64,000 nt of DNA from Nitrospirota bacterium (GTDB lineage: Bacteria; Nitrospirota; Nitrospiria; JACQBZ01): NCBI GenBank assembly GCA_016200255.1, contig JACQFA010000095.1, forward strand, positions 112-64,111. The letters are read 5' to 3'. Positions 20,423-33,717 of this stretch are shown one piece after another. The notes under the pieces were generated by a model. It was not told where the DNA came from. It did not search any database and worked only from the letters and a program-made list of their open reading frames with translations. Position 1 is the stretch's first letter. Each line of letters begins with the position of its first letter. Both the position numbers and the translations under genes were made by a program.

Positions 20423-21373
20423 TTACGGGATTACAATCGTGTCTCCCGATTGGATCACAAGATTTTTCTTGGGATCTTCGCTTGAAATAATATCATCGTA
20501 GCGGATTCGGAACTTGGTTTCGGTGGAGGTCGCTGGATCTTTTCGAAAAACCGCGATCCCGTTTTTAGAAGCAAACGGCGTAAATCCTCCGGCCATGGAA
20601 ACGGCTTGCAAGACCGTGATCCGTTCCTTTAAGGGGTACTTTCCAGGCTTAACGACTTCTCCCAGAATGTAATAAAAATAACTGTTGATGCTGGATACCA
20701 GAACCGAGACCTCCGGCGTGGAGATATAATCTTTCATTCGTTGGGTAATGAGATTTTTCAATTCCCCCGTGGAAATACCGCTGGCCTGGATATCCCCAAT
20801 GAGCGGCAGTGAAACTTTCCCATCCGGCCTCACCGTAACCGTCCGTGAAAGATCGGCATTTTTCCAGACCATGATCTCCAGCACATCCTCCGGACCGATT
20901 CGATATTCATCCACCACCCGTTCACCATCGTTATTCGATCGGGGAAAATCAATCAACAAGGTATTGTTTTGGGTTCGGACATCCGGCTTGATGGACTGAT
21001 TGAGAGAGATCTCCAACTTAATCGCCAGGTGAGGATTTCGACCTTCCTGTAGAGCGATCTCCCGAACAATACCTTTATCCACCTTGATCAAGCGACCGTA
21101 CGAACCGCGGGTCATGGAGAGAAGATTGATGACCACTCGCGGCGGGTTCTCCAATAACACGTACGTATACGTGATCGGTTTCTCGCCCTGAATCACGATC
21201 TCCGTCTTGTCCGAAAGATCCATCACTCGAAGATCGGTGAGGGTCTGTTCGCCTTGCGAGGACGATGCCACCGAAGCCGGCATCGAACTGCAGGCCGAGA
21301 TCAACAGGCCAAGCATGCCGATGACGGCCGTTGCATAATTATATCGTCTTCCCATATTCACCGCACTGCTCAC
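20423..21373 (-). CDS. wza: Polysaccharide export lipoprotein (Wza/OPX) with AMIN domain
   Basis: Lipobox LISAC, AMIN-like LENPPRVVINL, Poly_export YRIGPEDVLEI..VRPDGKVSLPLIG and SLBB GEVVKPG. Short, lacking a C-terminal OM helix. Confidence 0.9.
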   Translation of the reverse strand: MSSAVNMGRRYNYATAVIGMLGLLISACSSMPASVASSSQGEQTLTDLRVMDLSDKTEIVIQGEKPITYTYVLLENPPRVVINLLSMTRGSYGRLIKVDKGIVREIALQEGRNPHLAIKLEISLNQSIKPDVRTQNNTLLIDFPRSNNDGERVVDEYRIGPEDVLEIMVWKNADLSRTVTVRPDGKVSLPLIGDIQASGISTGELKNLITQRMKDYISTPEVSVLVSSINSYFYYILGEVVKPGKYPLKERITVLQAVSMAGGFTPFASKNGIAVFRKDPATSTETKFRIRYDDIISSEDPKKNLVIQSGDTIVIP

Positions 21374-21885
21374 TGATCCGCCACAAAGACATGATTTCCA
21401 CCCTGACCCTGGGCCTTCGCCAGGAGTCCTTCCGCTTTCTGGATCAACCCCGTCACATCATTGGCATTGGTCGGAAAGCAGGATACCCCAATGCTGATGG
21501 TACGGTGGTCTTTTCCCGGTCCGGTTTCAAATGTGTAATGCTCCACCCGTTCACGGATCCGCCGCCCGACGTTCACGGCATTCTCTAAATCCGTGTAGTG
21601 AAGGACGATAAAAAAGCTGTTGTCCAACCGCTCTCCCAAGAGATCCGTCACCCGAATCTCATCCCGCATGAGATAGCCCAACCTCCGGTGCACGGCCTCC
21701 TCCGTAGCGGCATCCACATGGGTCTTTATCCCGTCGAGTTGAATGACCAGCACCGAAAAATAATAGAGATACCGTGTGGCCTTTCGAACTTCAAGCTCCA
21801 ACAGGTACTCAAAAAGATTTCGGTCCAACGGTTGGGTCCAACGGTTGTCAACCATCTTTTCCGGATTCAATGAATTTTGCGTCAT
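21370..21885 (-). CDS. Stand-alone degenerate GGDEF-domain protein (intact RxxD I-site, LDNSF in place of GGDEF)
   Basis: GGDEF fold features FSVLVIQLD, RVTD-LLGER-LDNSF, TISIGVS and KAQGQGGN. Confidence 0.85.
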   Translation of the reverse strand: MTQNSLNPEKMVDNRWTQPLDRNLFEYLLELEVRKATRYLYYFSVLVIQLDGIKTHVDAATEEAVHRRLGYLMRDEIRVTDLLGERLDNSFFIVLHYTDLENAVNVGRRIRERVEHYTFETGPGKDHRTISIGVSCFPTNANDVTGLIQKAEGLLAKAQGQGGNHVFVADQ

Positions 21886-21946: not shown

Positions 21947-23422
21947 TTAGGAAACCGGTCCCGATGGATCCGGTTCACCATCCAAATTGCATTGTCGGAT
22001 CTTGTATAAAAGCGCCTTGTAACTGATCTGCAGAAGTCGGGCCGCCGCCTTGCGGTTCCATCGGGTCTGCTCCAGAGCCTTCAAAATCGCTTCACCCTCG
22101 GCTTTTTTCATGGCTTCACGAGCCACGTGTTTGAGGGAGGTTAACGGTGAACGGCTGATCAACTCGCGTGGCTTCTCCGGCGCGGGGGGATGGAACTCAA
22201 CGGGAGCCGACGCAACCGGAACGGTTTTCGGCCTGATCTTCTTACGGCTGTCACTCACGTATTGTTGGACGACCATGTCTTCGCGCCCCATAATCACAAC
22301 CCGCTTGATCAGGTTCTCCATCTCCCGCACGTTCCCCGGCCAGTCATAATCCATCAAACTTTGTAACGTGGCGGGGCTCAGCCGATAGCACTCTTTATTA
22401 TACTGTTGGTTGTACTTCTGCAAAAAGCACTCAACCAACAACGGGATATCCTCTCTGCGCTCCCGAAGAGGGGGCAGAAAAATGCTCACCACATTCAACC
22501 GATAATAGAGATCTTCTCGAAAGGTCCCATCCGCAACGGCCTTTTCAAGGTCCTTATTGGTCGCGGCTAGAATCCGGACATCCACCTTCAACTCATTTCC
22601 GCCGATAAGGGAAAATTCTCCCCGTTGTAGAACATGCAGGAGCTTGGACTGAAGTTCAAAAGGAATATCGCCGATTTCATCGAGAAAGATCGTCCCATGA
22701 TTGGCAATCTCGAACTTTCCGGGACGCCGGCGGAACGCTCCTGTGAAAGAACCCTTTTCATAACCAAACAGTTCACTTTCGAGAAGTCCTTCCGGAATCG
22801 CAGGGCACAGGACCGTAACAAACGGTTTCCCCGCACGATTTGAGCATTCAGAAAGACTGCGTGCCACCAACTCCTTACCGGTACCGCTCTCTCCACGGAT
22901 GAGAATCGTGACGTCCGTATTGGCCACATGGTCGATGACCGCCCTTACTTCCTGCATCCGCGGACTGGTTTCCAGAAGCAACTGGGGATGGTAGCCTCTT
23001 TTTCCATTCACGGTGGTTTGTGCAATAATCTCGGCCGGGGTCAAAACAACCCCCCGCAATTTTCCAAAAGCTTCCAAAACACTGGTTTTTAACTCCTGGG
23101 GGAGAAACGGCTTGGTTAAAATCCTCCATGAAGCCGGGCGTGTTAGATCCTGCAATAGAGGAAGCTGCATCTGACCGGAGAGTAAAATAACCTGTGACGA
23201 TTGTCCAAGTCGTGTCAGGAATTGCAGTTGCTGTAAAGTTTCCGGATTAATCCTCAAAATATCATAAACCACTACGGATGGCTTAATCGATTCCAACTCT
23301 TCTAGAAAATTCTCCGGGTTAGAGGGCATGTATACCTGTTGATCAAAACGAGAAATAAAGCTCTTTAAATAATTTCTCATTATTTGATCAGTACTTATGA
23401 GAAATATCCGACCGTTTTCCAT
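21947..23422 (-). CDS. Sigma54-dependent enhancer-binding protein (atypical REC, AAA+, HTH_8)
   Basis: GESGTGKE, ESELFGYEKGSFTGA, FLDEIGD, FREDLYYRLNV, WPGNVRE and a C-terminal HTH. Probable start MENGRIF at 23422. Confidence 0.93.
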   Translation of the reverse strand: MENGRIFLISTDQIMRNYLKSFISRFDQQVYMPSNPENFLEELESIKPSVVVYDILRINPETLQQLQFLTRLGQSSQVILLSGQMQLPLLQDLTRPASWRILTKPFLPQELKTSVLEAFGKLRGVVLTPAEIIAQTTVNGKRGYHPQLLLETSPRMQEVRAVIDHVANTDVTILIRGESGTGKELVARSLSECSNRAGKPFVTVLCPAIPEGLLESELFGYEKGSFTGAFRRRPGKFEIANHGTIFLDEIGDIPFELQSKLLHVLQRGEFSLIGGNELKVDVRILAATNKDLEKAVADGTFREDLYYRLNVVSIFLPPLRERREDIPLLVECFLQKYNQQYNKECYRLSPATLQSLMDYDWPGNVREMENLIKRVVIMGREDMVVQQYVSDSRKKIRPKTVPVASAPVEFHPPAPEKPRELISRSPLTSLKHVAREAMKKAEGEAILKALEQTRWNRKAAARLLQISYKALLYKIRQCNLDGEPDPSGPVS

Positions 23423-23804
23423 AGGAATATCACCAAACAGAACAGCAGGTACCCTAAAGCTGTAATTCCATTGATTCGGAATATTGTGGTAAAACTTTTC
23501 CATATTATAGCATCTTTAAAGCTAAATTGTCATTTAAATGCATGGGCATTATCAAGGTAATCTGGAATATGTTTAGGGTAGATTGTATTAAGTGGCTTTT
23601 TTACGCACTAGATTTGTCAACAAAGTGAGACCAGTTCCGATCGCAAACAATGCCACAACTTCACTTGTTTTAATGATTTCCGTTGAAAGGTTAAATATAA
23701 CCCCAAATAACAAGAGGGTAAGCCCTGAGATAAAAAGACAGACCTGGCCGTATCGCTTCCGCATAATCTAACCCTCCTAGTTGAACACTACCCCAATCTA
23801 TTTA

Positions 23805-25456: not shown

Positions 25457-25701
25457 TTGACCTCCTGCGGCATCATACTCAAATTTTGTTGGATGAAGAA
25501 CCACTCAAATGGCTTGCCATTCTAACACGAAGCATTGAAGGATTCAAAACATTAAACAACTGCATCAGAACCATTTTTTTCATTCACCACTATGTACTAT
25601 TGCGTACAAGTCATGACAAAAATTGTTCGTTTTGGATGCATTTTATCGAAACTTGAAAACCGACCGATAGAAAGATCAAGCGGTTATGGGACCAACACGA
25701 A

Positions 25702-25717
25702 TGGCATAAATGTTGCT
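25702..25717 (+). promoter_or_regulatory. Sigma54 (-24/-12) promoter
   Basis: TGGCAT-AAATG-TTGCT matches TGGCAC-N5-TTGCW with exact GG-N10-GC spacing, about 40 nt before riboswitch 1. Confidence 0.75.
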
Positions 25718-25758
25718 CCATTAGCGATCAGGTTACCGTTCTAGTAAGTACAACTTTT

Positions 25759-25847
25759 CCTTTGCTCAGAGCAAACCAGGGGAAACTCTGGGACGCAGAG
25801 CAACGGGGCTACCGCCGATGAGGCCATGCCCGCCGAGCCGCCAAAGG
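25759..25847 (+). ncRNA. GEMM-I (c-di-GMP-I class) riboswitch, A20 variant (candidate c-AMP-GMP sensor), copy 1
   Basis: P1 CCTTTG/CAAAGG; GCAAACCAGGG-GAAA-CTCTGGGACGC P2 with GAAA tetraloop; P3 followed by GCC. Position equivalent to Vc2 G20 is A (25770). Confidence 0.9.
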
Positions 25848-25872
25848 TTCTCTCTTTGGCGGCTATTTTTAT
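25836..25872 (+). terminator. Intrinsic terminator (expression platform of riboswitch 1)
   Basis: AGCCGCCAAAG-gttctct-CTTTGGCGGCT followed by ATTTTTAT. The 5' arm overlaps the aptamer P1 3' strand. Confidence 0.8.
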
Positions 25873-25993
25873 GCGCGGAGGCCCACAGAGAATAGACCAC
25901 ATTACTGGACTGGGCAATTTTGACCAGACCGCGTTATGTTCTTACGGGTATGTATAGTGTGACTAAGACAAAAGATTAAGGATTCTGATTTTA

Positions 25994-26081
25994 CCTTTGC
26001 TCAGAGCAAACCAGGGGAAACCCTGGGACGCAGAGTAACGGGGCTAACGCCTGATGGCCATGCCCGCCGAGCCGCCAAAGG
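25994..26081 (+). ncRNA. GEMM-I riboswitch, A20 variant, copy 2
   Basis: Near-identical copy 235 nt downstream: CCTTTGCTCAGAGCAAACCAGGGGAAACCCTGGGACGCAGAG...GCCGAGCCGCCAAAGG; A20 at 26005. Confidence 0.9.
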
Positions 26082-26103
26082 ATCTCTTTTGGCGGTTGTT
26101 TTA
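26070..26103 (+). terminator. Intrinsic terminator (expression platform of riboswitch 2)
   Basis: GCCGCCAAAG-gatctc-TTTTGGCGGT followed by TGTTTT, then GGAGG RBS and ATG at 26126. Confidence 0.75.
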
Positions 26104-26125
26104 TGTGCGGGGAGGTTAAATCATC

Positions 26126-28513
26126 ATGCGGCACAGCATTAAAAAACTCGGGTTGTTCCTGACCTTAAATATTCTCGTTCTTTTTTCCCTTTCCTACGGG
26201 ACCGCCGCTCTTGCGGGAGATGCCATCCTAACATGGAACCCCAACACGGAACCGGACCTAGCCGGATATAAAATTTATTATGGAACAGCCTCCGGCAGTT
26301 ATGGAGCCCCCATTGACGCCGGGAATCAAACAACCTATACCATAACAGGCTTGGGATACGGAACTTACTACTTTGCGGTCAAGGCCTATGATACAACTGG
26401 AAATTTGAGCGGCTCCTCGAACGAGGTAAACAAAACACTTTCGGATACGACACCACCCGTGATCTCGGCCATCAGCGCCGGCGGAATCACCAGCACCGGC
26501 GCCACAATTTCCTGGACCACGGATGAACCTGCAACTTCTCTGGTTGAATACGGCACCACTACGGCCTACGGATCTTCAACTCCGTTCGATTCAACTTTGG
26601 TCATCGGCCACAACAAAACCCTCGGCGGGCTTCAAGCCTCCATGATCTATCACTACCGCATCCGAAGCGCTGATGCCACCGGCAACCTCGCCATATCGGG
26701 CGACAACACATTTGTCACTGCCGCCGCGCCGGACACCACCCCCCCGGTGATCTCCGGCATTACAGCCGGCAGCGTGACCAGCACCAGCGCCACGATCTCG
26801 TGGACCACCGATGAGCCTTCGGATACCCAGGTCCAGTACGGAACAACGATGTCCTACGGAGCTTCGACCATCCTAAACTCATCTTTGGTGACCTCGCACA
26901 GTCAATCGTTGACCGTCCTTCAGCCCTCCACGCTGTATAATTTCAGAGTGCTAAGCCGGGATGCCGCCGGAAATCTGGCCACATCGGGAAACAATACATT
27001 CACAACGTCCGCGCCCCCCGATACCACCCCGCCCGTGATATCCGGAATCACGGCAAGCAACATAACCAATACGGGTGCGGTCATCACCTGGACCACCAAC
27101 GAAACTGCTAACTCTCAGGTTGAATACGGCACCACTACCGCCTATGGTTCATTGACAACGCTGGATTCCGCTCTGGTCACAAACCACAGTGCCACCTTAA
27201 ACGGTTTGACCGCCTCCATAACCTATCACTACCACGTCAAGAGCGCCGACGCCGCCGGAAACCTCGCCGTCTCAAACGACAATACCTTTATCACGTCGGC
27301 GCCGCCGGATACCACGCCGCCCCTTCTTTCCGGAATCACGGTAAGCAGCGTAACCAACACCGGTGCGGTCGTCACCTGGACTACCAACGAAGCGTCCACC
27401 TCCCAGGTGGAATATGGTCCAACCGTGACATATGGCTCTTCGTCGAACCTGAGTTCTACCCTGGTCACCGGCCACAGCATCACCTTAACCGGTCTGACCG
27501 CCTCTACTCTCTATCATTACTACGTGAAAAGCGCCGATGCCGCCGGAAACCTCGCGGTCTCGGATGACAATACATTCACCGCATCCGCTCCCCCCGATAC
27601 GACGGGTCCGGTTCTCTCTCTGATTACGGCAAGTAACATCACGGCGGCCGACGCCACCATTACCTGGGGTACGGACGAACCGGCCTCGTCCCAAGTGGAG
27701 TACGGATTGACGGCCTTTTATGGCAACAGCACAACGGTCAACGCCACACTTCTCAACAGCCATAGTCAGATACTCACCGGTCTTCAAGCATCGACGCTGT
27801 ACCATTACCGGGTGAAGAGCGCCGACAGCGCAGGCAACCTGTCCGTTTCAGGCGACCTTGTCCTTACCACCGGCAGCGCTGCGGATACGACACCGCCAGG
27901 AAACATCCAGAACTTTTCAGCCAAAGAGACAGGTCATCAAATCTCCCTGAGCTGGCTCAATCCGCCTGACCTGGATTTTATCGGTGTTCGAATCCGCTAC
28001 CGGACGGATCATTATCCAACCGATACCAACGACGGAGTTTTGCTGGGCGACTTCACCGGTCTTCCGAATCAGGCCATGAGCACGATCCAAACCCCGATTG
28101 TGAAACACGTCACTTACTACTATGCCGCTTCAACGTATGACAGCTCCGGAAATTATCAACATACCGCCTACGCTTCGGTGACAACCTCTCTTACTTCAGA
28201 CGGCTCAGGCAGCCCCGACAATGTCACCATGAGCGGCGGATGCGGCATGGTTCGTCCTGGCTCCGGCAAGCCTCCGGGCCCCGGTCAGTCGGCGGACATG
28301 ATCTTCCTTCTGGTCGTGCTTCTGATTGCGATCCTGAAACGGGAAATACAAAAAAAGAAAAGTTTTGACAGAGTCCGGATCATTTCGGGTATAATATTAA
28401 GTTCGTTGTTTTATCATGGGGCGTTTAAACCGGAAGAGATTTCGGAGTTATATTTTGAACAATTCAATCGCACCGTTTTTGACAATAAAACGCTTTTGTA
28501 TTCAGGCGGTTAA
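26126..28513 (+). CDS. Secreted FN3-repeat surface protein with GGC-TM C-terminal anchor
   Basis: Signal peptide (AALA|GD), N-terminal FN3 (WNPNTEPDLAGYKIYYG), five 96-aa FN3-like repeats, a further FN3, then SGGCGMVRPG..KPPGPGQ, a hydrophobic helix and KR. Confidence 0.88.
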   Translation: MRHSIKKLGLFLTLNILVLFSLSYGTAALAGDAILTWNPNTEPDLAGYKIYYGTASGSYGAPIDAGNQTTYTITGLGYGTYYFAVKAYDTTGNLSGSSNEVNKTLSDTTPPVISAISAGGITSTGATISWTTDEPATSLVEYGTTTAYGSSTPFDSTLVIGHNKTLGGLQASMIYHYRIRSADATGNLAISGDNTFVTAAAPDTTPPVISGITAGSVTSTSATISWTTDEPSDTQVQYGTTMSYGASTILNSSLVTSHSQSLTVLQPSTLYNFRVLSRDAAGNLATSGNNTFTTSAPPDTTPPVISGITASNITNTGAVITWTTNETANSQVEYGTTTAYGSLTTLDSALVTNHSATLNGLTASITYHYHVKSADAAGNLAVSNDNTFITSAPPDTTPPLLSGITVSSVTNTGAVVTWTTNEASTSQVEYGPTVTYGSSSNLSSTLVTGHSITLTGLTASTLYHYYVKSADAAGNLAVSDDNTFTASAPPDTTGPVLSLITASNITAADATITWGTDEPASSQVEYGLTAFYGNSTTVNATLLNSHSQILTGLQASTLYHYRVKSADSAGNLSVSGDLVLTTGSAADTTPPGNIQNFSAKETGHQISLSWLNPPDLDFIGVRIRYRTDHYPTDTNDGVLLGDFTGLPNQAMSTIQTPIVKHVTYYYAASTYDSSGNYQHTAYASVTTSLTSDGSGSPDNVTMSGGCGMVRPGSGKPPGPGQSADMIFLLVVLLIAILKREIQKKKSFDRVRIISGIILSSLFYHGAFKPEEISELYFEQFNRTVFDNKTLLYSGG
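26444..27883 (+). repeat. Five tandem coding repeats with exact 288-bp period (FN3-like domains)
   Basis: DTTPP/DTTGP codons start at 26444, 26732, 27020, 27308, 27596 and 27884. Confidence 0.92.
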
Positions 28514-30794
28514 TGCCATCATGATGATGCTCATCTGCACCAACAGTTTTGTTTTTGCGGCCGATGCCGTCCTGTCATGGGATCCAAACACCGAACCGGA
28601 TCTGGCGGGATACAAGGTCTATTATGGAACGGTATCCGGAGCACACACCCAAGTGATCTCGGTGGGACTGACAAGCACCCCCACAGCGCCGCAGTATACG
28701 GTCAGCAATCTGAACAGCGGCACGACTTATTATTTCTCGGTCACAAGCTTCGACAGCTCATCAAACGAGAGCGGGTTTTCGAATGAAGTGTCCAAAACAT
28801 TTCCGGCCGAGGCGACCACGCCAATGGATATCACCGATTTTATAGTGGTCCCGGGAAAGGGACAGATCAGCCTAAGCTGGAACGATCCGTCCGATCCCAA
28901 CTATGCCGGGGTTCGTATCCGGGTTCGCACGGATGGAACATATCCGACCGATCCGAACAACGATGGCGATCTTGTAGGAGACTTTCCGGGAGAACCTCTG
29001 CAGAGCAAAAGCTATGTGCATTCCGATCTTAAGGCCGGGACCGCCTATTATTATTCCGCATTCAGCCAGGATTCCAGCGGTAATTTCACGCCCGCCGTCC
29101 ATGCCACGGCCACCCCGCTTGCCTCGGATCAACCCAATCGAGGCCTTTCCTCGCAGAATATCAGCGGCGGTTGCGGGATGGTTCGTCCCGGCAACGGCAA
29201 ACCTCCAGGCCCCGGTCAGGCGGCCGACATCATGGCCCTCCTTGTTCTGATCCTGGTTACATTGGTAAGAAAGTGGACACGACCCAAAAATTTCATTCAA
29301 TGGGTGGCGGCCTCGTTTCTTAATCCCGTCTTGAAATTCCATGGAATATATTTTCTAGGTGCTTTTCTTTTTACAACAGCGTTTCTGTCTCTCTATCCGA
29401 ATGGCGCCGAAGCACAGACCGCGAATATCACGGTCGATGCGGCAGCCGGCCAGGGGACCTTGGTCCAGCACTCGCTGAATATCAATCAGGATCCAACCGT
29501 GGCGCGCGAACAACAGCGAGTCGCTGACGTCGGAATGCGGATGATTCGAAATCACACCCAGACGGATATTACGAACCTTGAGTATGTTTCGACCGCGGAA
29601 GGCCAATATGACTGGACTTCCCTTGACGCCAGCATGGACAGCGTCATCGCGTCAGGGGCCAAACCCTATTTCCGGCTGGGTTATATGCCCGACTGGCTGG
29701 CGGACAAATCTTACGGCATTACCAATTCAAGTGATCCCAATCATCTCTACAAATTCAATCCCCCCTCTGACTTCGCCAAATGGCAGCAGCTCGTCTACGA
29801 TGTGGTCTACCATCTAAACGTCGTGAAGAAGTACGGCATCACATTCTTCACGGTCTGGAACGAACCGGACTGCTGCGGTTCCTTGTATCTGACCGGGCAG
29901 AGCGGGTACTTTCAGCTTTATAAATACGCCGCGCAAGGCGTGAAGTCGGCCGACCCTTCCGCAAAGGTGGGAGGGCCTGTCGCTTCGTGGCTGACATCGG
30001 GATTCACCCAGGGACTGATCACATACTGCGCCGCCAACAGCGTTCCTCTGGATTTCATCGATTTTCATTGGTATGACCCGTCGCCCGGAACGTTGGCCCC
30101 GCTGCTTTCGACCGCGCGTACCTGGCTTAACGGTGCCGGGTTTTCCACGGCTCCCATTTTCGTCTCGGAATGGAACGGATCGTATACCTGGACTGATTCC
30201 GGGGCGGTCACCCGCCAAGCAGGGCATATCGCCCCGGTCGCCTACTATCTGACCGAAGCCGGCGCGGACGGCTTCTTCTGGCGGTTGTTGCGCCCCAGCC
30301 CCAGCACCTCCGGGATCATTCAAAACGGCGGGGATCCTGTCTATCCTCAATATAATACTTATAAAATGATCAGCATGCTGGCAAGCACCCGGGTGAGTAC
30401 AACCGGCCTGCAAATGGACTCGAATGGTTTAGGCGTCGGAGCGATCTCTTCGATGGATGCCGGCAAAGTCACCGTTTTGATCTGGAATTACCAAAATACC
30501 GGTACCAGTGCTTTCACGGTTAATGTAACGGTCAACAATTTGCCATCGAGTTTCTCCGGCAAATCGATCCAGCTGGCCAGGTACTTGATGGATGCAACGC
30601 ACAGCAATTACACCTACAGCACCAGCAACTATGAATTAGAGCAAGTTGAGAATTTGACTCTCTCACCCGCAAGTTCTCTGACGAAAAGCGTCGGCCTTCC
30701 GGCGAGCGCAGTATCGCTCATCGCCCTGACTCCCGGCGGCACGGCTTCTGACACGACGCCGCCCGCTCCGCCGACCGGTTTAACCGTAAAATGA
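28416..30794 (+). CDS. FN3-FN3-GGC-TM module fused through a second signal peptide to a GH39-like glycoside hydrolase
   Basis: N-terminal part paralogous to 26126..28513. Internal FLGAFLFTTAFLSLYPNGAEA|Q. GH-A/GH39 motifs WNEPD, DFIDFHWY and FVSEWN. Ends SDTTPPAPPTGLTVK. Start codon uncertain. Confidence 0.82.
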   Translation: MGRLNRKRFRSYILNNSIAPFLTIKRFCIQAVNAIMMMLICTNSFVFAADAVLSWDPNTEPDLAGYKVYYGTVSGAHTQVISVGLTSTPTAPQYTVSNLNSGTTYYFSVTSFDSSSNESGFSNEVSKTFPAEATTPMDITDFIVVPGKGQISLSWNDPSDPNYAGVRIRVRTDGTYPTDPNNDGDLVGDFPGEPLQSKSYVHSDLKAGTAYYYSAFSQDSSGNFTPAVHATATPLASDQPNRGLSSQNISGGCGMVRPGNGKPPGPGQAADIMALLVLILVTLVRKWTRPKNFIQWVAASFLNPVLKFHGIYFLGAFLFTTAFLSLYPNGAEAQTANITVDAAAGQGTLVQHSLNINQDPTVAREQQRVADVGMRMIRNHTQTDITNLEYVSTAEGQYDWTSLDASMDSVIASGAKPYFRLGYMPDWLADKSYGITNSSDPNHLYKFNPPSDFAKWQQLVYDVVYHLNVVKKYGITFFTVWNEPDCCGSLYLTGQSGYFQLYKYAAQGVKSADPSAKVGGPVASWLTSGFTQGLITYCAANSVPLDFIDFHWYDPSPGTLAPLLSTARTWLNGAGFSTAPIFVSEWNGSYTWTDSGAVTRQAGHIAPVAYYLTEAGADGFFWRLLRPSPSTSGIIQNGGDPVYPQYNTYKMISMLASTRVSTTGLQMDSNGLGVGAISSMDAGKVTVLIWNYQNTGTSAFTVNVTVNNLPSSFSGKSIQLARYLMDATHSNYTYSTSNYELEQVENLTLSPASSLTKSVGLPASAVSLIALTPGGTASDTTPPAPPTGLTVK

Positions 30795-30804
30795 GGTAAC
30801 CGAC

Positions 30805-33717
30805 ATGGAATCATTGACTGCGAATGAAACCACGAGAGTTTTTGACCGCATGATGGTCCGTCCTCCCATGCAGACGAAAATCAAACTCCACAGTGCAATC
30901 TCACCTAAGATCCAAACGCGGCTCGCTCTGTTGATGGGCGCCCTCTTGCTGTTCGGCTCAAATCCAGCCTGGGCCGCCAGCCCGATCAGCGTCAAACTGA
31001 CGGTGACAGAGCCGGCCGGTATCAGCCGCACCCAGGAACCCGTCACGCTCGGTATCCCGATCGGCCAGAGCTATAACGTGATGGATGTCGCATCGCTGAG
31101 GATCACGGCTGCGGACGGGACGACCTCCCTTCCGGCCCAGTTCACCGTTCTATCCCGATGGGGAGGCCTGGCGACGGATACCACCAAACCAATCAACTGG
31201 GTCCAGACCGATTTCGAAGCGGATGTTCCGGCCAGCACAAGCGCGACCTTCTACTTGAAGAACGACGGCAGCTACGCTCCAACCGGGATGGCGGCCACAA
31301 CGTCCTCCGCCTTTACCGTGAACACCGGCGCCGCCACCTTCACCATCAGCCGAACCGCCTTTAATCTTTTTGATCAAGTGAATCTCGGCGGAGGGATGAT
31401 CATCAGCAGCCCCGCCAATGACGGATTCGTCTATACCGATAAGAACGGGACCTCGTTCTACGCATCCAAAGGCAGCGTGCTGGATTCCTCGGTCGAGATG
31501 GATGGACCGATCCAGACCATCGTAATGGTCCACGGCAAACTATCGAGCGGCTCGGCGAATCTCAAAGGCGGCGATGCGTCGACCTATCTGGGGGGTAGCG
31601 ACACAGCCCAAAACTATGATCTGGAATACCGGGTCCGATTTCACTTTTATAAGAGCAAAAGCTATGTGATCGCGGAAAATACACTGATCAACGACGGAAA
31701 CGGCTTCATCGGGACCTGGAGCAGCACCTGTCCAAACTGCAACAACAGCCTGTATGCCCAATCGATGACGTTGAACACGACACTCAGCATCGGATCGAGC
31801 CATCAAATCACATTTCAAGGATACGGGGACACGACAACCAGCTCCACGGACAGCTATCAGTTCCTGCAGGCCCACAGCGTGGCGAGCCTGACGAGCGAGA
31901 CCCCGAACTTCAGCTATAGCTCGACCAAGAACGGCGGAGCGGGCGGGACGGGCGGGACCCGAGCGGTCGGCTATGCCGATCTCGGAGACGGGTCAAACGG
32001 CGTAACGGTCGCGGTCAAATATTTCTGGCAGCTCTACCCAAAGGGGTTTCGGATCAACAACACGACGCTTTCGGCCGATCTCCTTCCGCAAACCGGCTCC
32101 AACCATTTTGTTCGCGGCGGTTGGCACGTGACCAATGAGCTTCTATACAACTTCCACACCGGGAGCTTTTCATCCTCCGGCGCGGCCGCCACCGTGAGCG
32201 CCTATCAATCGCCTGTCGACGCGCGTTTCGATCCGAACTGGTTCGCCGATACACAGGCCTGGGGACTGGATGCACCGGCCGGATTGACCATGCCGACGCC
32301 GGACCTGGTCAATGCCTTGAACCGCTGGGAGCAGCTGCAGCGGGCCAAAGTCGATGCCACTCAGTCATCGAATGGGGCATCGATCACGACCTTCCGGGAA
32401 AACCGGATGCTGCTCGGGAGCGCCAACACCTGGGACCATGCCTGGTACGGATGGGACGCCTTCGGCGATCGACGGTGGAAATTCTTCAGTTCGGCCTGCA
32501 GCGGAGCGGGTTGCAACCTCACAAACACGCCTTATTTGTCCGGGGTTCAGTACGACTGGCCCTTCAGCCTTCTCCTCCATTATTTGAGGACGGGAAACCG
32601 CGGCTTCTACGACATGTGGATGGATATGTCAAATCATAACGTTGGTTTTGCCGTCCAGTACGGGGGGCATCTCTCCGGTGAAGCCGGCTGGTTTCCAAAT
32701 CAGGTCTACTGGGAGGATGGGGGACCGTTCTCGACCACGTCGACCTATACCGGTTTGATGGAGCAGAACCAGGGTTTCTGTCTGAGTTATTTGTATACGG
32801 GCAACAAGCGATTTTTGGATGCCTGCAAGGCGATGGCCGATGAAGGATGGACCTATTGGACTTCTTATGAGAGCACGGCCCCAAATTATATCAAGTCTGA
32901 ACTCCGCATCGCCGGATGGAATATATTCAGGCAACTTAATTACTACAAAGTGAGCGGGGATGCGACCTACCTGAACCAAGCCCTGACGATCTTCACGAAC
33001 GGGCTTTTGGCGACGGAGCAATCCGCGGCCCCTCCGACCGGGATCGGAAGCAACGGCCAGGGCTATGTGTATGACGATCTTGCCGTCAGAGACTGCACGA
33101 CGCAGGATGCGACCACCGGGGTGATTACCTACCAGGTGCGCGTTCTCATGCTCGGTTATATAACGGACCCGCTCACCGAACTCCACCGCCTCAGCGGATC
33201 CCAGGCGGTGCTGGACTTTTTGACCCGAATGCTGAACTTTGTACAGACAACCCCGTATGTGGGCGGAGTAACCGACTCCAGCGGTAATTATCTTCCCAAC
33301 CAAACACCGTACTGCTACAACCCGGCCACCGGATCCCGCCAATTCCGGGACATCCAGGTCATCTACAATTACTTCTTCGCCGGCGGGTATTCCTACCTCT
33401 ACGCAACGACCCGTAATTCAACCCATCTTAATTTCGCCCGCAGCCTCTTCAAGGATTCGGTCTTTTACTGGGAAGCCGTTTCGAATACCTATGTTAACCC
33501 AACCTCCCTCACCCCGGTCTATCTCGGATACGAACCGCAGACGAGCAAACAGCAGGGCTGGACCGGGCGATTCCATCAAGGTTATCTGTCAATGGAATAC
33601 CAGATGCAGAAAAACGGCGGCGTCCTTCCGAGTTGGTATCCCGGCACGCCTCCGGTGCCCGTTTCTTCCGGCGATACCACACCGCCGGCCCCGCCGACGG
33701 GGTTGAAAGTGCAATAA
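30805..33717 (+). CDS. Secreted PcRGLX/YetA-like (exo-rhamnogalacturonan lyase-like, RIFT barrel plus alpha/alpha barrel) protein
   Basis: Signal peptide ending AWA; EPAGISRTQEPVTLGIP, LPAQF.VLSRW and WYGWDAFGD; YD...LLHYLRTG. Ends GDTTPPAPPTGLKVQ. Confidence 0.7.
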   Translation: MESLTANETTRVFDRMMVRPPMQTKIKLHSAISPKIQTRLALLMGALLLFGSNPAWAASPISVKLTVTEPAGISRTQEPVTLGIPIGQSYNVMDVASLRITAADGTTSLPAQFTVLSRWGGLATDTTKPINWVQTDFEADVPASTSATFYLKNDGSYAPTGMAATTSSAFTVNTGAATFTISRTAFNLFDQVNLGGGMIISSPANDGFVYTDKNGTSFYASKGSVLDSSVEMDGPIQTIVMVHGKLSSGSANLKGGDASTYLGGSDTAQNYDLEYRVRFHFYKSKSYVIAENTLINDGNGFIGTWSSTCPNCNNSLYAQSMTLNTTLSIGSSHQITFQGYGDTTTSSTDSYQFLQAHSVASLTSETPNFSYSSTKNGGAGGTGGTRAVGYADLGDGSNGVTVAVKYFWQLYPKGFRINNTTLSADLLPQTGSNHFVRGGWHVTNELLYNFHTGSFSSSGAAATVSAYQSPVDARFDPNWFADTQAWGLDAPAGLTMPTPDLVNALNRWEQLQRAKVDATQSSNGASITTFRENRMLLGSANTWDHAWYGWDAFGDRRWKFFSSACSGAGCNLTNTPYLSGVQYDWPFSLLLHYLRTGNRGFYDMWMDMSNHNVGFAVQYGGHLSGEAGWFPNQVYWEDGGPFSTTSTYTGLMEQNQGFCLSYLYTGNKRFLDACKAMADEGWTYWTSYESTAPNYIKSELRIAGWNIFRQLNYYKVSGDATYLNQALTIFTNGLLATEQSAAPPTGIGSNGQGYVYDDLAVRDCTTQDATTGVITYQVRVLMLGYITDPLTELHRLSGSQAVLDFLTRMLNFVQTTPYVGGVTDSSGNYLPNQTPYCYNPATGSRQFRDIQVIYNYFFAGGYSYLYATTRNSTHLNFARSLFKDSVFYWEAVSNTYVNPTSLTPVYLGYEPQTSKQQGWTGRFHQGYLSMEYQMQKNGGVLPSWYPGTPPVPVSSGDTTPPAPPTGLKVQ

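Follow-up and report, generated by a model that had tools for sequence, protein, structure and literature searches.

Which messenger is read by an RNA leader that carries two GEMM-I aptamers in series, each with an adenine where members selective for cyclic di-guanosine monophosphate (c-di-GMP) have a guanine, and which genes are placed under its control? The question is raised by a 64,000-nucleotide (nt) stretch of Nitrospirota DNA (assembly GCA_016200255.1, contig JACQFA010000095.1, positions 112 to 64,111 of the forward strand; hereafter the window), in which an earlier annotation, referred to here as the original prediction, had placed tandem riboswitches of the type that reads cyclic GMP-AMP in its 3',3' form (cGAMP) at 25759-26103. 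By its predicted fold and wiring the leader is genuine and well formed, a tandem ON riboswitch whose class is known and whose host lineage is new, and we favour, with moderate confidence, a reading in which the two A20 aptamers form an ON gate that has cGAMP, alone or together with c-di-GMP, as its input and is probably transcribed from a sigma-54 promoter.

A cmscan search of the whole window against Rfam 15 returned two matches only, both to the c-di-GMP-I family (RF01051) on the plus strand, with 59.8 bits at 25760-25845 and 60.6 bits at 25995-26079 (gathering score 35; model positions 1-87), and no variant family of the same Rfam clan scored above RF01051 at either aptamer. These two matches above the gathering score, with starts 235 nt apart, uphold the predicted pair of near-identical GEMM-I aptamers. 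Numbered as in Vc2, they are:

25759-25847, plus strand: aptamer 1, GEMM-I fold, P1 formed by 25759-25764 and 25842-25847 (RF01051, 59.8 bits); A20 is 25770, A47 is 25797, G48 is 25798 and pairs with C25839, C92 is 25841.
25994-26081, plus strand: aptamer 2, P1 formed by 25994-25999 and 26076-26081 (RF01051, 60.6 bits); A20 is 26005, A47 is 26032, G48 is 26033 and pairs with C26073, C92 is 26075.

In both aptamers P1 is formed by CCTTTG and CAAAGG, and model position 11, which equals G20 of Vc2, is A, so that the G of c-di-GMP-selective GEMM-I aptamers is lacking; sequence and covariance-model alignment thus agree with what had been predicted for position 20 and for P1. The mapped ligand-contacting positions A18, A47, C92 and G91 match Vc2, position 20 alone being different. 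P2 is GNRA-capped (GAAA loop) and its lower part reads A20-G21-C22...G45-C46, the same as in Vc2 (G21-C46, C22-G45), while J1/2 is CUCAGA.

Each aptamer runs into a terminator of its own, and the first unit ends in an orphan ribosome-binding site:

25836-25874, plus strand: intrinsic terminator 1 (terminator scan), a 12-bp stem at 25836-25864 with a T-rich tail at 25865-25874.
26070-26107, plus strand: intrinsic terminator 2 (terminator scan), a 12-bp stem at 26070-26097 with a T-rich tail at 26098-26107.
25877-25881, plus strand: vestigial GGAGG ribosome-binding site, copied with unit 1 (unit alignment), with no start codon behind it.

Folded alone, the hairpins reach -19.5 (terminator 1) and -17.6 kcal/mol (terminator 2), and the minimum free energy (MFE) fold of each whole unit is the terminator state. 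The 5' arm of the terminator, AGCCGCCAAAGG, is made up of the 3' strand of P1 and the J1/3-P3 end. As AGCCGCCAAAGG contains the P1 3' strand, aptamer and terminator are mutually exclusive, and therefore the ligand should turn transcription ON. This double use of the P1 3' strand, which had been predicted, was recovered in both copies by terminator scan and by folding, and the overlapping terminator that each copy possesses supports the predicted wiring of both as transcriptional ON switches in tandem. The MFE fold also contains a helix of the ligand-free state, in which UUGCUC (5' P1/J1/2) pairs with GAGCAA (positions 48-53), and which we treat as unproven; in 56 distinct members of the subfamily defined below this pairing is mostly kept, with no compensatory change and several uncompensated single mismatches.

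Aligned with each other, the units agree in 112 of 127 columns (88%) and the aptamers in 84 of 91, and pairing is preserved where the copies differ (G-U versus G-C, C-G versus U-G). Similarity between the units extends through 25877-25881, as expected from the original description of a copy-1 GGAGG that has no open reading frame (ORF); in related single-copy leaders the order is terminator, GGAGG, ATG. Read from this alignment, a tandem duplication, recent by its 88% identity, is what gave the leader two complete GEMM-I riboswitches. In one groundwater study, two other runs yielded contigs that bridge copy 1, the spacer and the beginning of copy 2 (25771-26027 in X2 record 6, 25629-26023 in X4 record 19; one of the two runs may be the window's source sample), and therefore the tandem is not an artefact of this assembly.

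Two aptamers of the same class, each with its own expression platform and presumably on a single transcript, are what the known tandem c-di-GMP-I riboswitches also present, complete riboswitches standing in series; unlike those, the pair in the window is A20 in both members, and its recent duplication copied the ribosome-binding site as well. c-di-GMP-I is the commonest tandem riboswitch, with 347 doublets and 12 triplets, one triplet, from Bacillus thuringiensis, having been validated, and a tandem is expected to give a more digital response (PMC9481103). As these doublets and the tandem GEMM-Ib riboswitches of Geobacter sulfurreducens (PMC6456294) were already on record, the novelty originally attached to the tandem layout was overstated. 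Copy 2 might nevertheless regulate alone, copy 1 being a decaying duplicate or a separate short transcript, with no two-step gate. The copy-1 ribosome-binding site without an ORF and the 130-nt spacer of unrelated sequence would suit this, yet copy 1 scores equally well (59.8 versus 60.6 bits), pairing survives its substitutions and, of the two terminators, its own is the stronger; moreover, the sole promoter-like motif lies upstream of copy 1, and doublets and triplets recur in the subfamily (three aptamers on contig C46 of genome G009; two, 301 nt apart, at locus L244), all of which makes regulation by copy 2 alone very unlikely.

The promoter-like motif and a regulator encoded nearby are:

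25702-25717, plus strand: sigma-54-type -24/-12 promoter motif TGGCATAAATGTTGCT, 42 nt upstream of P1.
21947-23503, minus strand: sigma-54-dependent response regulator, Rec-AAA-HTH_8 (Pfam), 2.2 kb from the promoter motif.

Sigma-54 promoters are built of GG and GC elements, with the consensus TGGCAC-N5-TTGCW. The pattern TGGCAYNNNNNTTGCW has its sole match in the 64-kb window at 25702-25717, where 0.08 matches were expected and 7 of 100 shuffles gave at least one. Of 39 related leaders, 5 have the same motif 50-73 nt upstream of their aptamer, and in two of these 5 an FN3 homologue follows; in 200 shuffles the mean was 0.035 and the highest count 1. Besides the window leader, four related ones are preceded by the motif. 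The spacing of the motif is right, rpoN is present in the genome and an enhancer-binding protein is encoded, and we infer a transcription start near 25727-25729, about 30 nt before P1. The response regulator, which scores under the cut-off of NCBIfam PEP_resp_reg, would by proximity only be a candidate activator of the 25702 promoter. A scan of the plus strand from 25505 to 25994 found no sigma-70 promoter; TTGACC and TATAGT in the spacer, considered as one, are 27 nt apart, which is too far.

We propose that transcription is probably initiated at the sigma-54 promoter at 25702-25717, and that expression would require both an enhancer-binding activator and a cyclic dinucleotide. In each unit the ligand-bound aptamer would keep AGCCGCCAAAGG in P1 and P3, and in the ligand-free RNA AGCCGCCAAAGG would become the 5' arm of the 12-bp intrinsic terminator. 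The operon downstream, which encodes FN3, glycoside hydrolase family 39 (GH39) and lyase-like proteins, would be transcribed only when both switches are occupied in turn, and therefore the response should steepen. The cGAMP would be supplied by Hypr-type GAF-GGDEF, FHA-GGDEF and HAMP-GGDDF proteins and removed by an RxxN HD-GYP protein.

From the retained C92 we expect a 3',3' cyclic dinucleotide in which one base or both are G, and with A at position 20 both aptamers should admit 3',3'-cGAMP. The original prediction had also pointed to G at position 48. The base itself is there (25798 and 26033), but as a change of the pocket it does not hold: in Gs1761 J2/3 is A41 alone and P3 opens with A42-U73 (PMC6274999), so that position 48 is the 5' half of the P3-closing pair. 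We read position 20 in all 129 GEMM-I matches of 41 genomes, namely the window genome and 40 of the same class, and 126 of these matches reach the gathering score. G48 occurs in 30 of 62 A20 aptamers versus 1 of 63 G20 aptamers among these relatives, and in 29 of the 31 that carry G48 the partner position, two bases before C92, is occupied by C, where G48-C stands in for the usual A-U (or A.C) pair closing P3. By this pattern G48-C lies beside the pocket as a compensated pair, and no ligand contact is changed by it.

Together, A20, G21-C46 and G48-C mark a subfamily that differs from both validated types and is conserved across Nitrospirota and some Desulfuromonadales, and of which, to our knowledge, no member has been assayed. 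It could be argued from this that the subfamily reads some other ligand, for example another purine dinucleotide or linear pApG or pGpA. We give this idea very little credence, since the mapped contacts A18, A47, C92 and G91 are as in Vc2 with only position 20 changed, G48-C is a compensated helix pair, and RF01051 is not outscored by the variant families of its own clan.

If cGAMP is the input, the host should have enzymes for it, and a search of the genome (2.26 Mb, 104 contigs, 96.8% complete; the window lies on contig C29) for Hypr GGDEF proteins, suggested in the original prediction with the absence of a Hypr cyclase counting against cGAMP, was positive. The residue that we read in each GGDEF domain is the last position of the GHxxG[D] motif, which we take to be Asp344 of PleD. 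This is Ser348 in GacA, whose role is described in PMC6456294. Among 23 GGDEF domains about 17 have the canonical Asp and three have Ser: a GAF-GGDEF protein on contig C17 (369 aa, GHLMGS, GGDEF, RTVD I-site), an FHA-GGDEF protein (333 aa, GHLAGS, GGDEF) and a 4HB-HAMP protein (455 aa, GYIRGS, GGDDF). The last of these shares its architecture and both odd motifs with GSU1937, the HAMP-containing second cGAMP synthase of G. sulfurreducens (PMC8835794). The catalytic domain of the GAF-GGDEF protein has as its best PDB match the Geobacter Hypr GGDEF fusion 6d9m, with 170 bits versus 122 for the next, 79 of 158 positions being identical as counted on the match line, and the Ser aligns. Its cross-dimer residue is Phe, not Arg, where GacA has Tyr; the residues reported to favour cGAMP at this position are Tyr, Ser, Ala and Gln (PMC6456294). 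All three proteins fit the 'Goldilocks' rule, according to which enzymes with Ser or Thr carry GGDE[F/Y] and never GGEEF (PMC6456294).

Nine HD-GYP domains are encoded, of which one has RVYN, aligned to RPYK of PmGH (4mcw), and the other eight RxxR; Rxx(Q/N) marks cGAMP-specific HD-GYP phosphodiesterases, the PmxA type having RxxQ (10.1101/600031). One class III nucleotide cyclase and six EAL domains are also present, and no SMODS or CD-NTase domain was found in the genome. Plausibly, then, the genome can make cGAMP through the GAF-GGDEF, FHA-GGDEF and HAMP-GGDDF candidates and can plausibly degrade it through the RxxN HD-GYP. Compared with GacA, MxGacB, GSU1937 and PmxA, the candidate set of the host likewise has Ser where an Asp would read guanine, GGD[ED]F and not GGEEF, the RxxD I-site, and the GAF architecture of MxGacB, which is activated by cAMP, as well as the HAMP architecture of GSU1937, with an RxxN HD-GYP here versus the RxxQ of PmxA. 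It differs in that the Rec-GGDEF form of GacA was not seen, that there is an extra FHA-GGDEF with Ser, and that Phe and not Tyr occupies the cross-dimer position.

GEMM-I occurs in 33 of the 41 genomes. Among the 126 matches that reach the gathering score position 20 is A in 62, G in 63 and C in one, and A20 aptamers are found in 24 genomes (one low-scoring A20 match, G011:C82, is doubtful). Position 20 follows the leader subfamily: it is A in 25 of 26 leaders of the CTTTG/ATTTG type, the exception, with G, being G022:C7, and G in 24 of 25 of the CTTC[TC] type. G21-C46 is kept in all 62 A20 aptamers of the class, window included. A full-length orthologue of the GAF-GGDEF protein (at least 47% identity) is present in 32 of 41 genomes, and in all 30 orthologues examined (G029 and G038 were left out) Ser, GGDEF and RxxD are kept, the cross-dimer residue being F in 24, Y in 4 and L in 2. 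An in-frame TAG noticed in three orthologues is merely their normal stop codon. With this query the orthologue was not found in six genomes of family f2, two of f11 and G031 (82% complete). It accompanies A20 in 23 of 24 genomes; kinship of the genomes weakens any test of such co-occurrence.

Homologues of the 795-aa protein encoded first behind the window leader lie directly behind A20 aptamers in G005, G006, G013 (twice) and G033, and in G009 they lie behind arrays, one a triple A20 and the other a G20 followed by A20. The triple array (G009:C46:22996-23524, L100) precedes a 1159-aa FN3 protein. At G009:C48:464-1487 (L057) a G20 aptamer is followed 164 nt later by A20, with a further A20 behind a short FN3 ORF. 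These arrays may act as two-input or multi-step gates. In the two genomes of the same genus as the window genome, neither a gene for the 795-aa protein nor A20 aptamers were found with these queries.

A number of observations weigh against the cGAMP-gated, sigma-54-initiated tandem that we favour. In the validated GEMM-Ib type of Geobacter, which also dominates in Geomonas and in one metagenome-assembled genome (MAG) of Desulfuromonadaceae, the sequence is A20-C21-U22...G-G46; of these marks the window has A20, but its lower P2 pair is G21-C46 and not C21-G46. We infer that this pair is a defining feature of GEMM-Ib: in Gs1761 P2 has C15-G40, with G40 stacking on the ligand adenine (PMC6274999), and changes in lower P2 are reported to alter cGAMP/c-di-GMP selectivity (PMC9262584, citing Ren 2015). 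The mutation G20A in Vc2 improved cGAMP affinity from 10 uM to a KD of 120 nM, and c-di-GMP is bound by the same RNA with 53 nM; Vc2 G20A, Gs1761 and Cbe 1-2 bind c-di-GMP through protonated A20, the Clostridium beijerinckii aptamer Cbe 1-2 being bispecific for cGAMP and c-di-GMP (PMC6140456), and aptamer 3 of Desulfobacca acetoxidans likewise binds both ligands (PMC9481103). Hypr enzymes, for their part, produce c-di-GMP too in vitro (PMC6456294). Among the relatives, the co-occurrence of A20 with the Hypr orthologue is not specific, because G20 aptamers are as depleted where the orthologue is lacking (3 of 9 genomes without it versus 24 of 32 with it). The cyclase is encoded without any GEMM-I in G001, a 96% complete genome of the same genus, and in G015 it is accompanied by G20 aptamers only, one of them before an FN3 homologue. 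Furthermore, copy 2 may have a separate promoter, and the stretch was not found in any run on record as RNA, a result without bearing on expression.

In light of these data the original label 'c-AMP-GMP-type' stands as regards A20 and not as regards the type, since the pocket is Vc2-like and A20 in such a context has been reported to be bispecific; it follows that the aptamers should bind cGAMP and that their selectivity is not readable from the sequence. In vivo they could then be c-di-GMP sensors, A20 lowering the affinity so that two weak sensors in series set a high, sharp threshold for matrix genes, with cGAMP either not made or irrelevant. Such sensors would accord with a pocket that is Vc2-like except for A20, with the 53 nM c-di-GMP binding of Vc2 G20A through protonated A20 and that of Gs1761 and Cbe 1-2 (PMC6140456), with the roughly 17 canonical-Asp GGDEF and six EAL domains of the genome, with the FN3 homologue behind a G20 aptamer in G015, and with a position 20 that flips within the subfamily at least once (G at G022:C7), but they would leave aside three Ser-type GGDEF proteins, one of them closest to the Geobacter Hypr structure and with its signature residues in 30 of 30 orthologues, as well as the encoded RxxN HD-GYP and the expectation that an A20 aptamer binds cGAMP when it is present (PMC6140456). 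We consider c-di-GMP as the sole input unlikely, if far from negligible. Returning to cGAMP, the aptamers likely respond to it by virtue of A20, and on balance we lean towards cGAMP as a physiological input, alone or together with c-di-GMP; that they are cGAMP-selective is a tentative suggestion, on which we would not rely.

The window pair can thus be set beside two groups of assayed RNAs. With Geobacter GEMM-Ib (Gs1761 before pgcA, pilM, and the tandem before omcAHG) it shares the GEMM-I fold, A20, C92 and A47, a transcriptional ON design in which the aptamer excludes the terminator, a tandem before surface or extracellular functions, and Hypr GGDEF candidates in the host (PMC6456294, PMC9262584, PMC6140456). 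It differs in having G21-C46 where Gs1761 has C-G, J1/2 of CUCAGA and not of the AAUA type, a Nitrospirota host, a sigma-54 promoter upstream, and FN3, GH39 and lyase-like genes in an exopolysaccharide locus, not cytochromes or pili, downstream. With Vc2 G20A, Cbe 1-2 and D. acetoxidans aptamer 3 it shares a lone G-to-A change at position 20 in a c-di-GMP-I-like pocket; those RNAs, when assayed, bound both cGAMP and c-di-GMP, and the window aptamers, whose ligand is predicted, are in a host with Hypr-type candidate cyclases.

A20 variants outside Geobacter have been assayed before (PMC6140456, PMC9481103). The workings of Hypr-cGAMP signalling are known almost exclusively from Geobacter, Myxococcus and Bdellovibrio, and its distribution is described as narrow (10.1101/600031). 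In full-text searches a link between Nitrospirota and Hypr-cGAMP was not found beyond incidental mentions, the main 2015-2016 papers and the supplements lying outside that coverage. What is added here is a Nitrospirota lineage with candidates for every part of the pathway: writers (three Ser GGDEF proteins), an eraser (the RxxN HD-GYP) and readers (62 of 126 aptamers with A20), behind which secreted FN3 proteins of a recurring set are encoded. Should cGAMP be the input, more organisms and functions come under this messenger, and a short, easily assayed aptamer type becomes available to separate position 20 from lower P2 in cGAMP selectivity; if c-di-GMP is read instead, this is an ordinary tandem c-di-GMP switch. 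We put forward, as a speculation that may well prove wrong, that the class-wide A20/G21-C46/G48-C subclass, the conserved GAF-Hypr GGDEF (probably gated by a cyclic mononucleotide), the GSU1937-like cyclase and the RxxN HD-GYP form an ancestral cGAMP pathway controlling secreted FN3 and matrix-remodelling proteins, which some leaders would join to control by sigma-54 or, in a gate of two inputs, to a G20 aptamer. Were this true, cGAMP would be, beside c-di-GMP, a main signal of surface lifestyle in an environmentally important phylum.

The leader type extends beyond the class. An exact 18-mer, CTTTGNTCAGAGCAAAYC, was scanned against one genome per species, the loci listed being a sample; among the 80 matches listed, 51 failed the test for the rest of the aptamer and at least 29 loci (at least 31 sites) passed it. 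These 29 comprise at least 23 from Nitrospirota, Nitrospirae, Nitrospiraceae or Manganitrophaceae, at least three from Deltaproteobacteria MAGs or Desulfuromonadaceae and at least three others. The platform GAGCCGCCAAAGG, loop, CTTTGGCGGYTTTTT, followed by GGAGG and ATG, recurs in 26 related leaders, and the same terminator platform is found at nearly all of the at least 31 public-genome sites listed. In the Geomonas and Desulfuromonadaceae genomes reached by the scan the dominant A20 type is ...AAUA-CU-AAACC...GGGGCGG-AAAG, i.e. C21-G46, and the CTTTG...AGAGC type of the window occurs once in each. The first ORF behind at least 7 of the 31 sites listed encodes, by eye, a signal peptide and an FN3-type N-terminal motif like that of the window gene, and behind at least 9 of them a lipoprotein of about 150-170 aa. 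The N-terminus ...CSPKIYGTVQL... of this recurrent lipoprotein was seen in other Nitrospirota at L184, L189, L205, L235, L237, L242, L246, L249 and L254, and a Pfam search with its first 60 residues gave no match.

The genes behind the window leader are:

26110-26128, plus strand: ribosome-binding site GGGAGG (26110-26115) and ATG (26126-26128) of the first regulated gene (sequence, ORF list).
26126-28513, plus strand: regulated gene 1, whose 795-aa secreted product has FN3 / Pur_ac_phosph_N repeats and, close to its C-terminus, a hydrophobic segment (Pfam, translation).
28416-30794, plus strand: regulated gene 2, FN3 and a GH39-like domain (Pfam).
30805-33717, plus strand: regulated gene 3, 970 aa, a PcRGLX-like beta-sandwich, rhamnogalacturonan-lyase-like (Pfam).

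The C-terminus of the 795-aa protein (28270-28390) runs from a stretch rich in Gly and Pro through a hydrophobic helix into a cluster of basic residues (…GGCG…IFLLVVLLIAILKR…) and resembles a sorting or anchor signal; the ORF of this protein overlaps the next gene by about 100 nt. The operon is surrounded by an exopolysaccharide locus with a priming sugar transferase, a Wza-like exporter and three GT4 glycosyltransferases, and further with an AsnB-like amidotransferase, a Wzy_C protein, a GT2 glycosyltransferase and a degenerate GGDEF protein with an intact RxxD. The original prediction had regarded exopolysaccharide and surface functions as new ground for cGAMP, which was an overstatement, as Geobacter cGAMP riboswitches were already found upstream of polysaccharide genes (PMC6456294).

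Two further elements with a possible part in cyclic dinucleotide signalling are:

21370-21885, minus strand: stand-alone degenerate GGDEF protein of 171 aa, with LDNSF for GGDEF and the RxxD I-site kept (RVTD).
Contig C30 of the window genome, 18416-18517 (L003 1501-1602): the only G20 GEMM-I of that genome, with its own terminator.

The degenerate GGDEF gene sits between those of the sigma-54 regulator and the Wza-like exporter, and its product, by the I-site that it retains, could be a cyclic-dinucleotide receptor for the exopolysaccharide locus. The G20 riboswitch on contig C30 adjoins the 6S RNA gene, which lies on the opposite strand, and precedes a gene for a 218-aa GerE/LuxR-type regulator; its leader is conserved in G002, G003 and G004.

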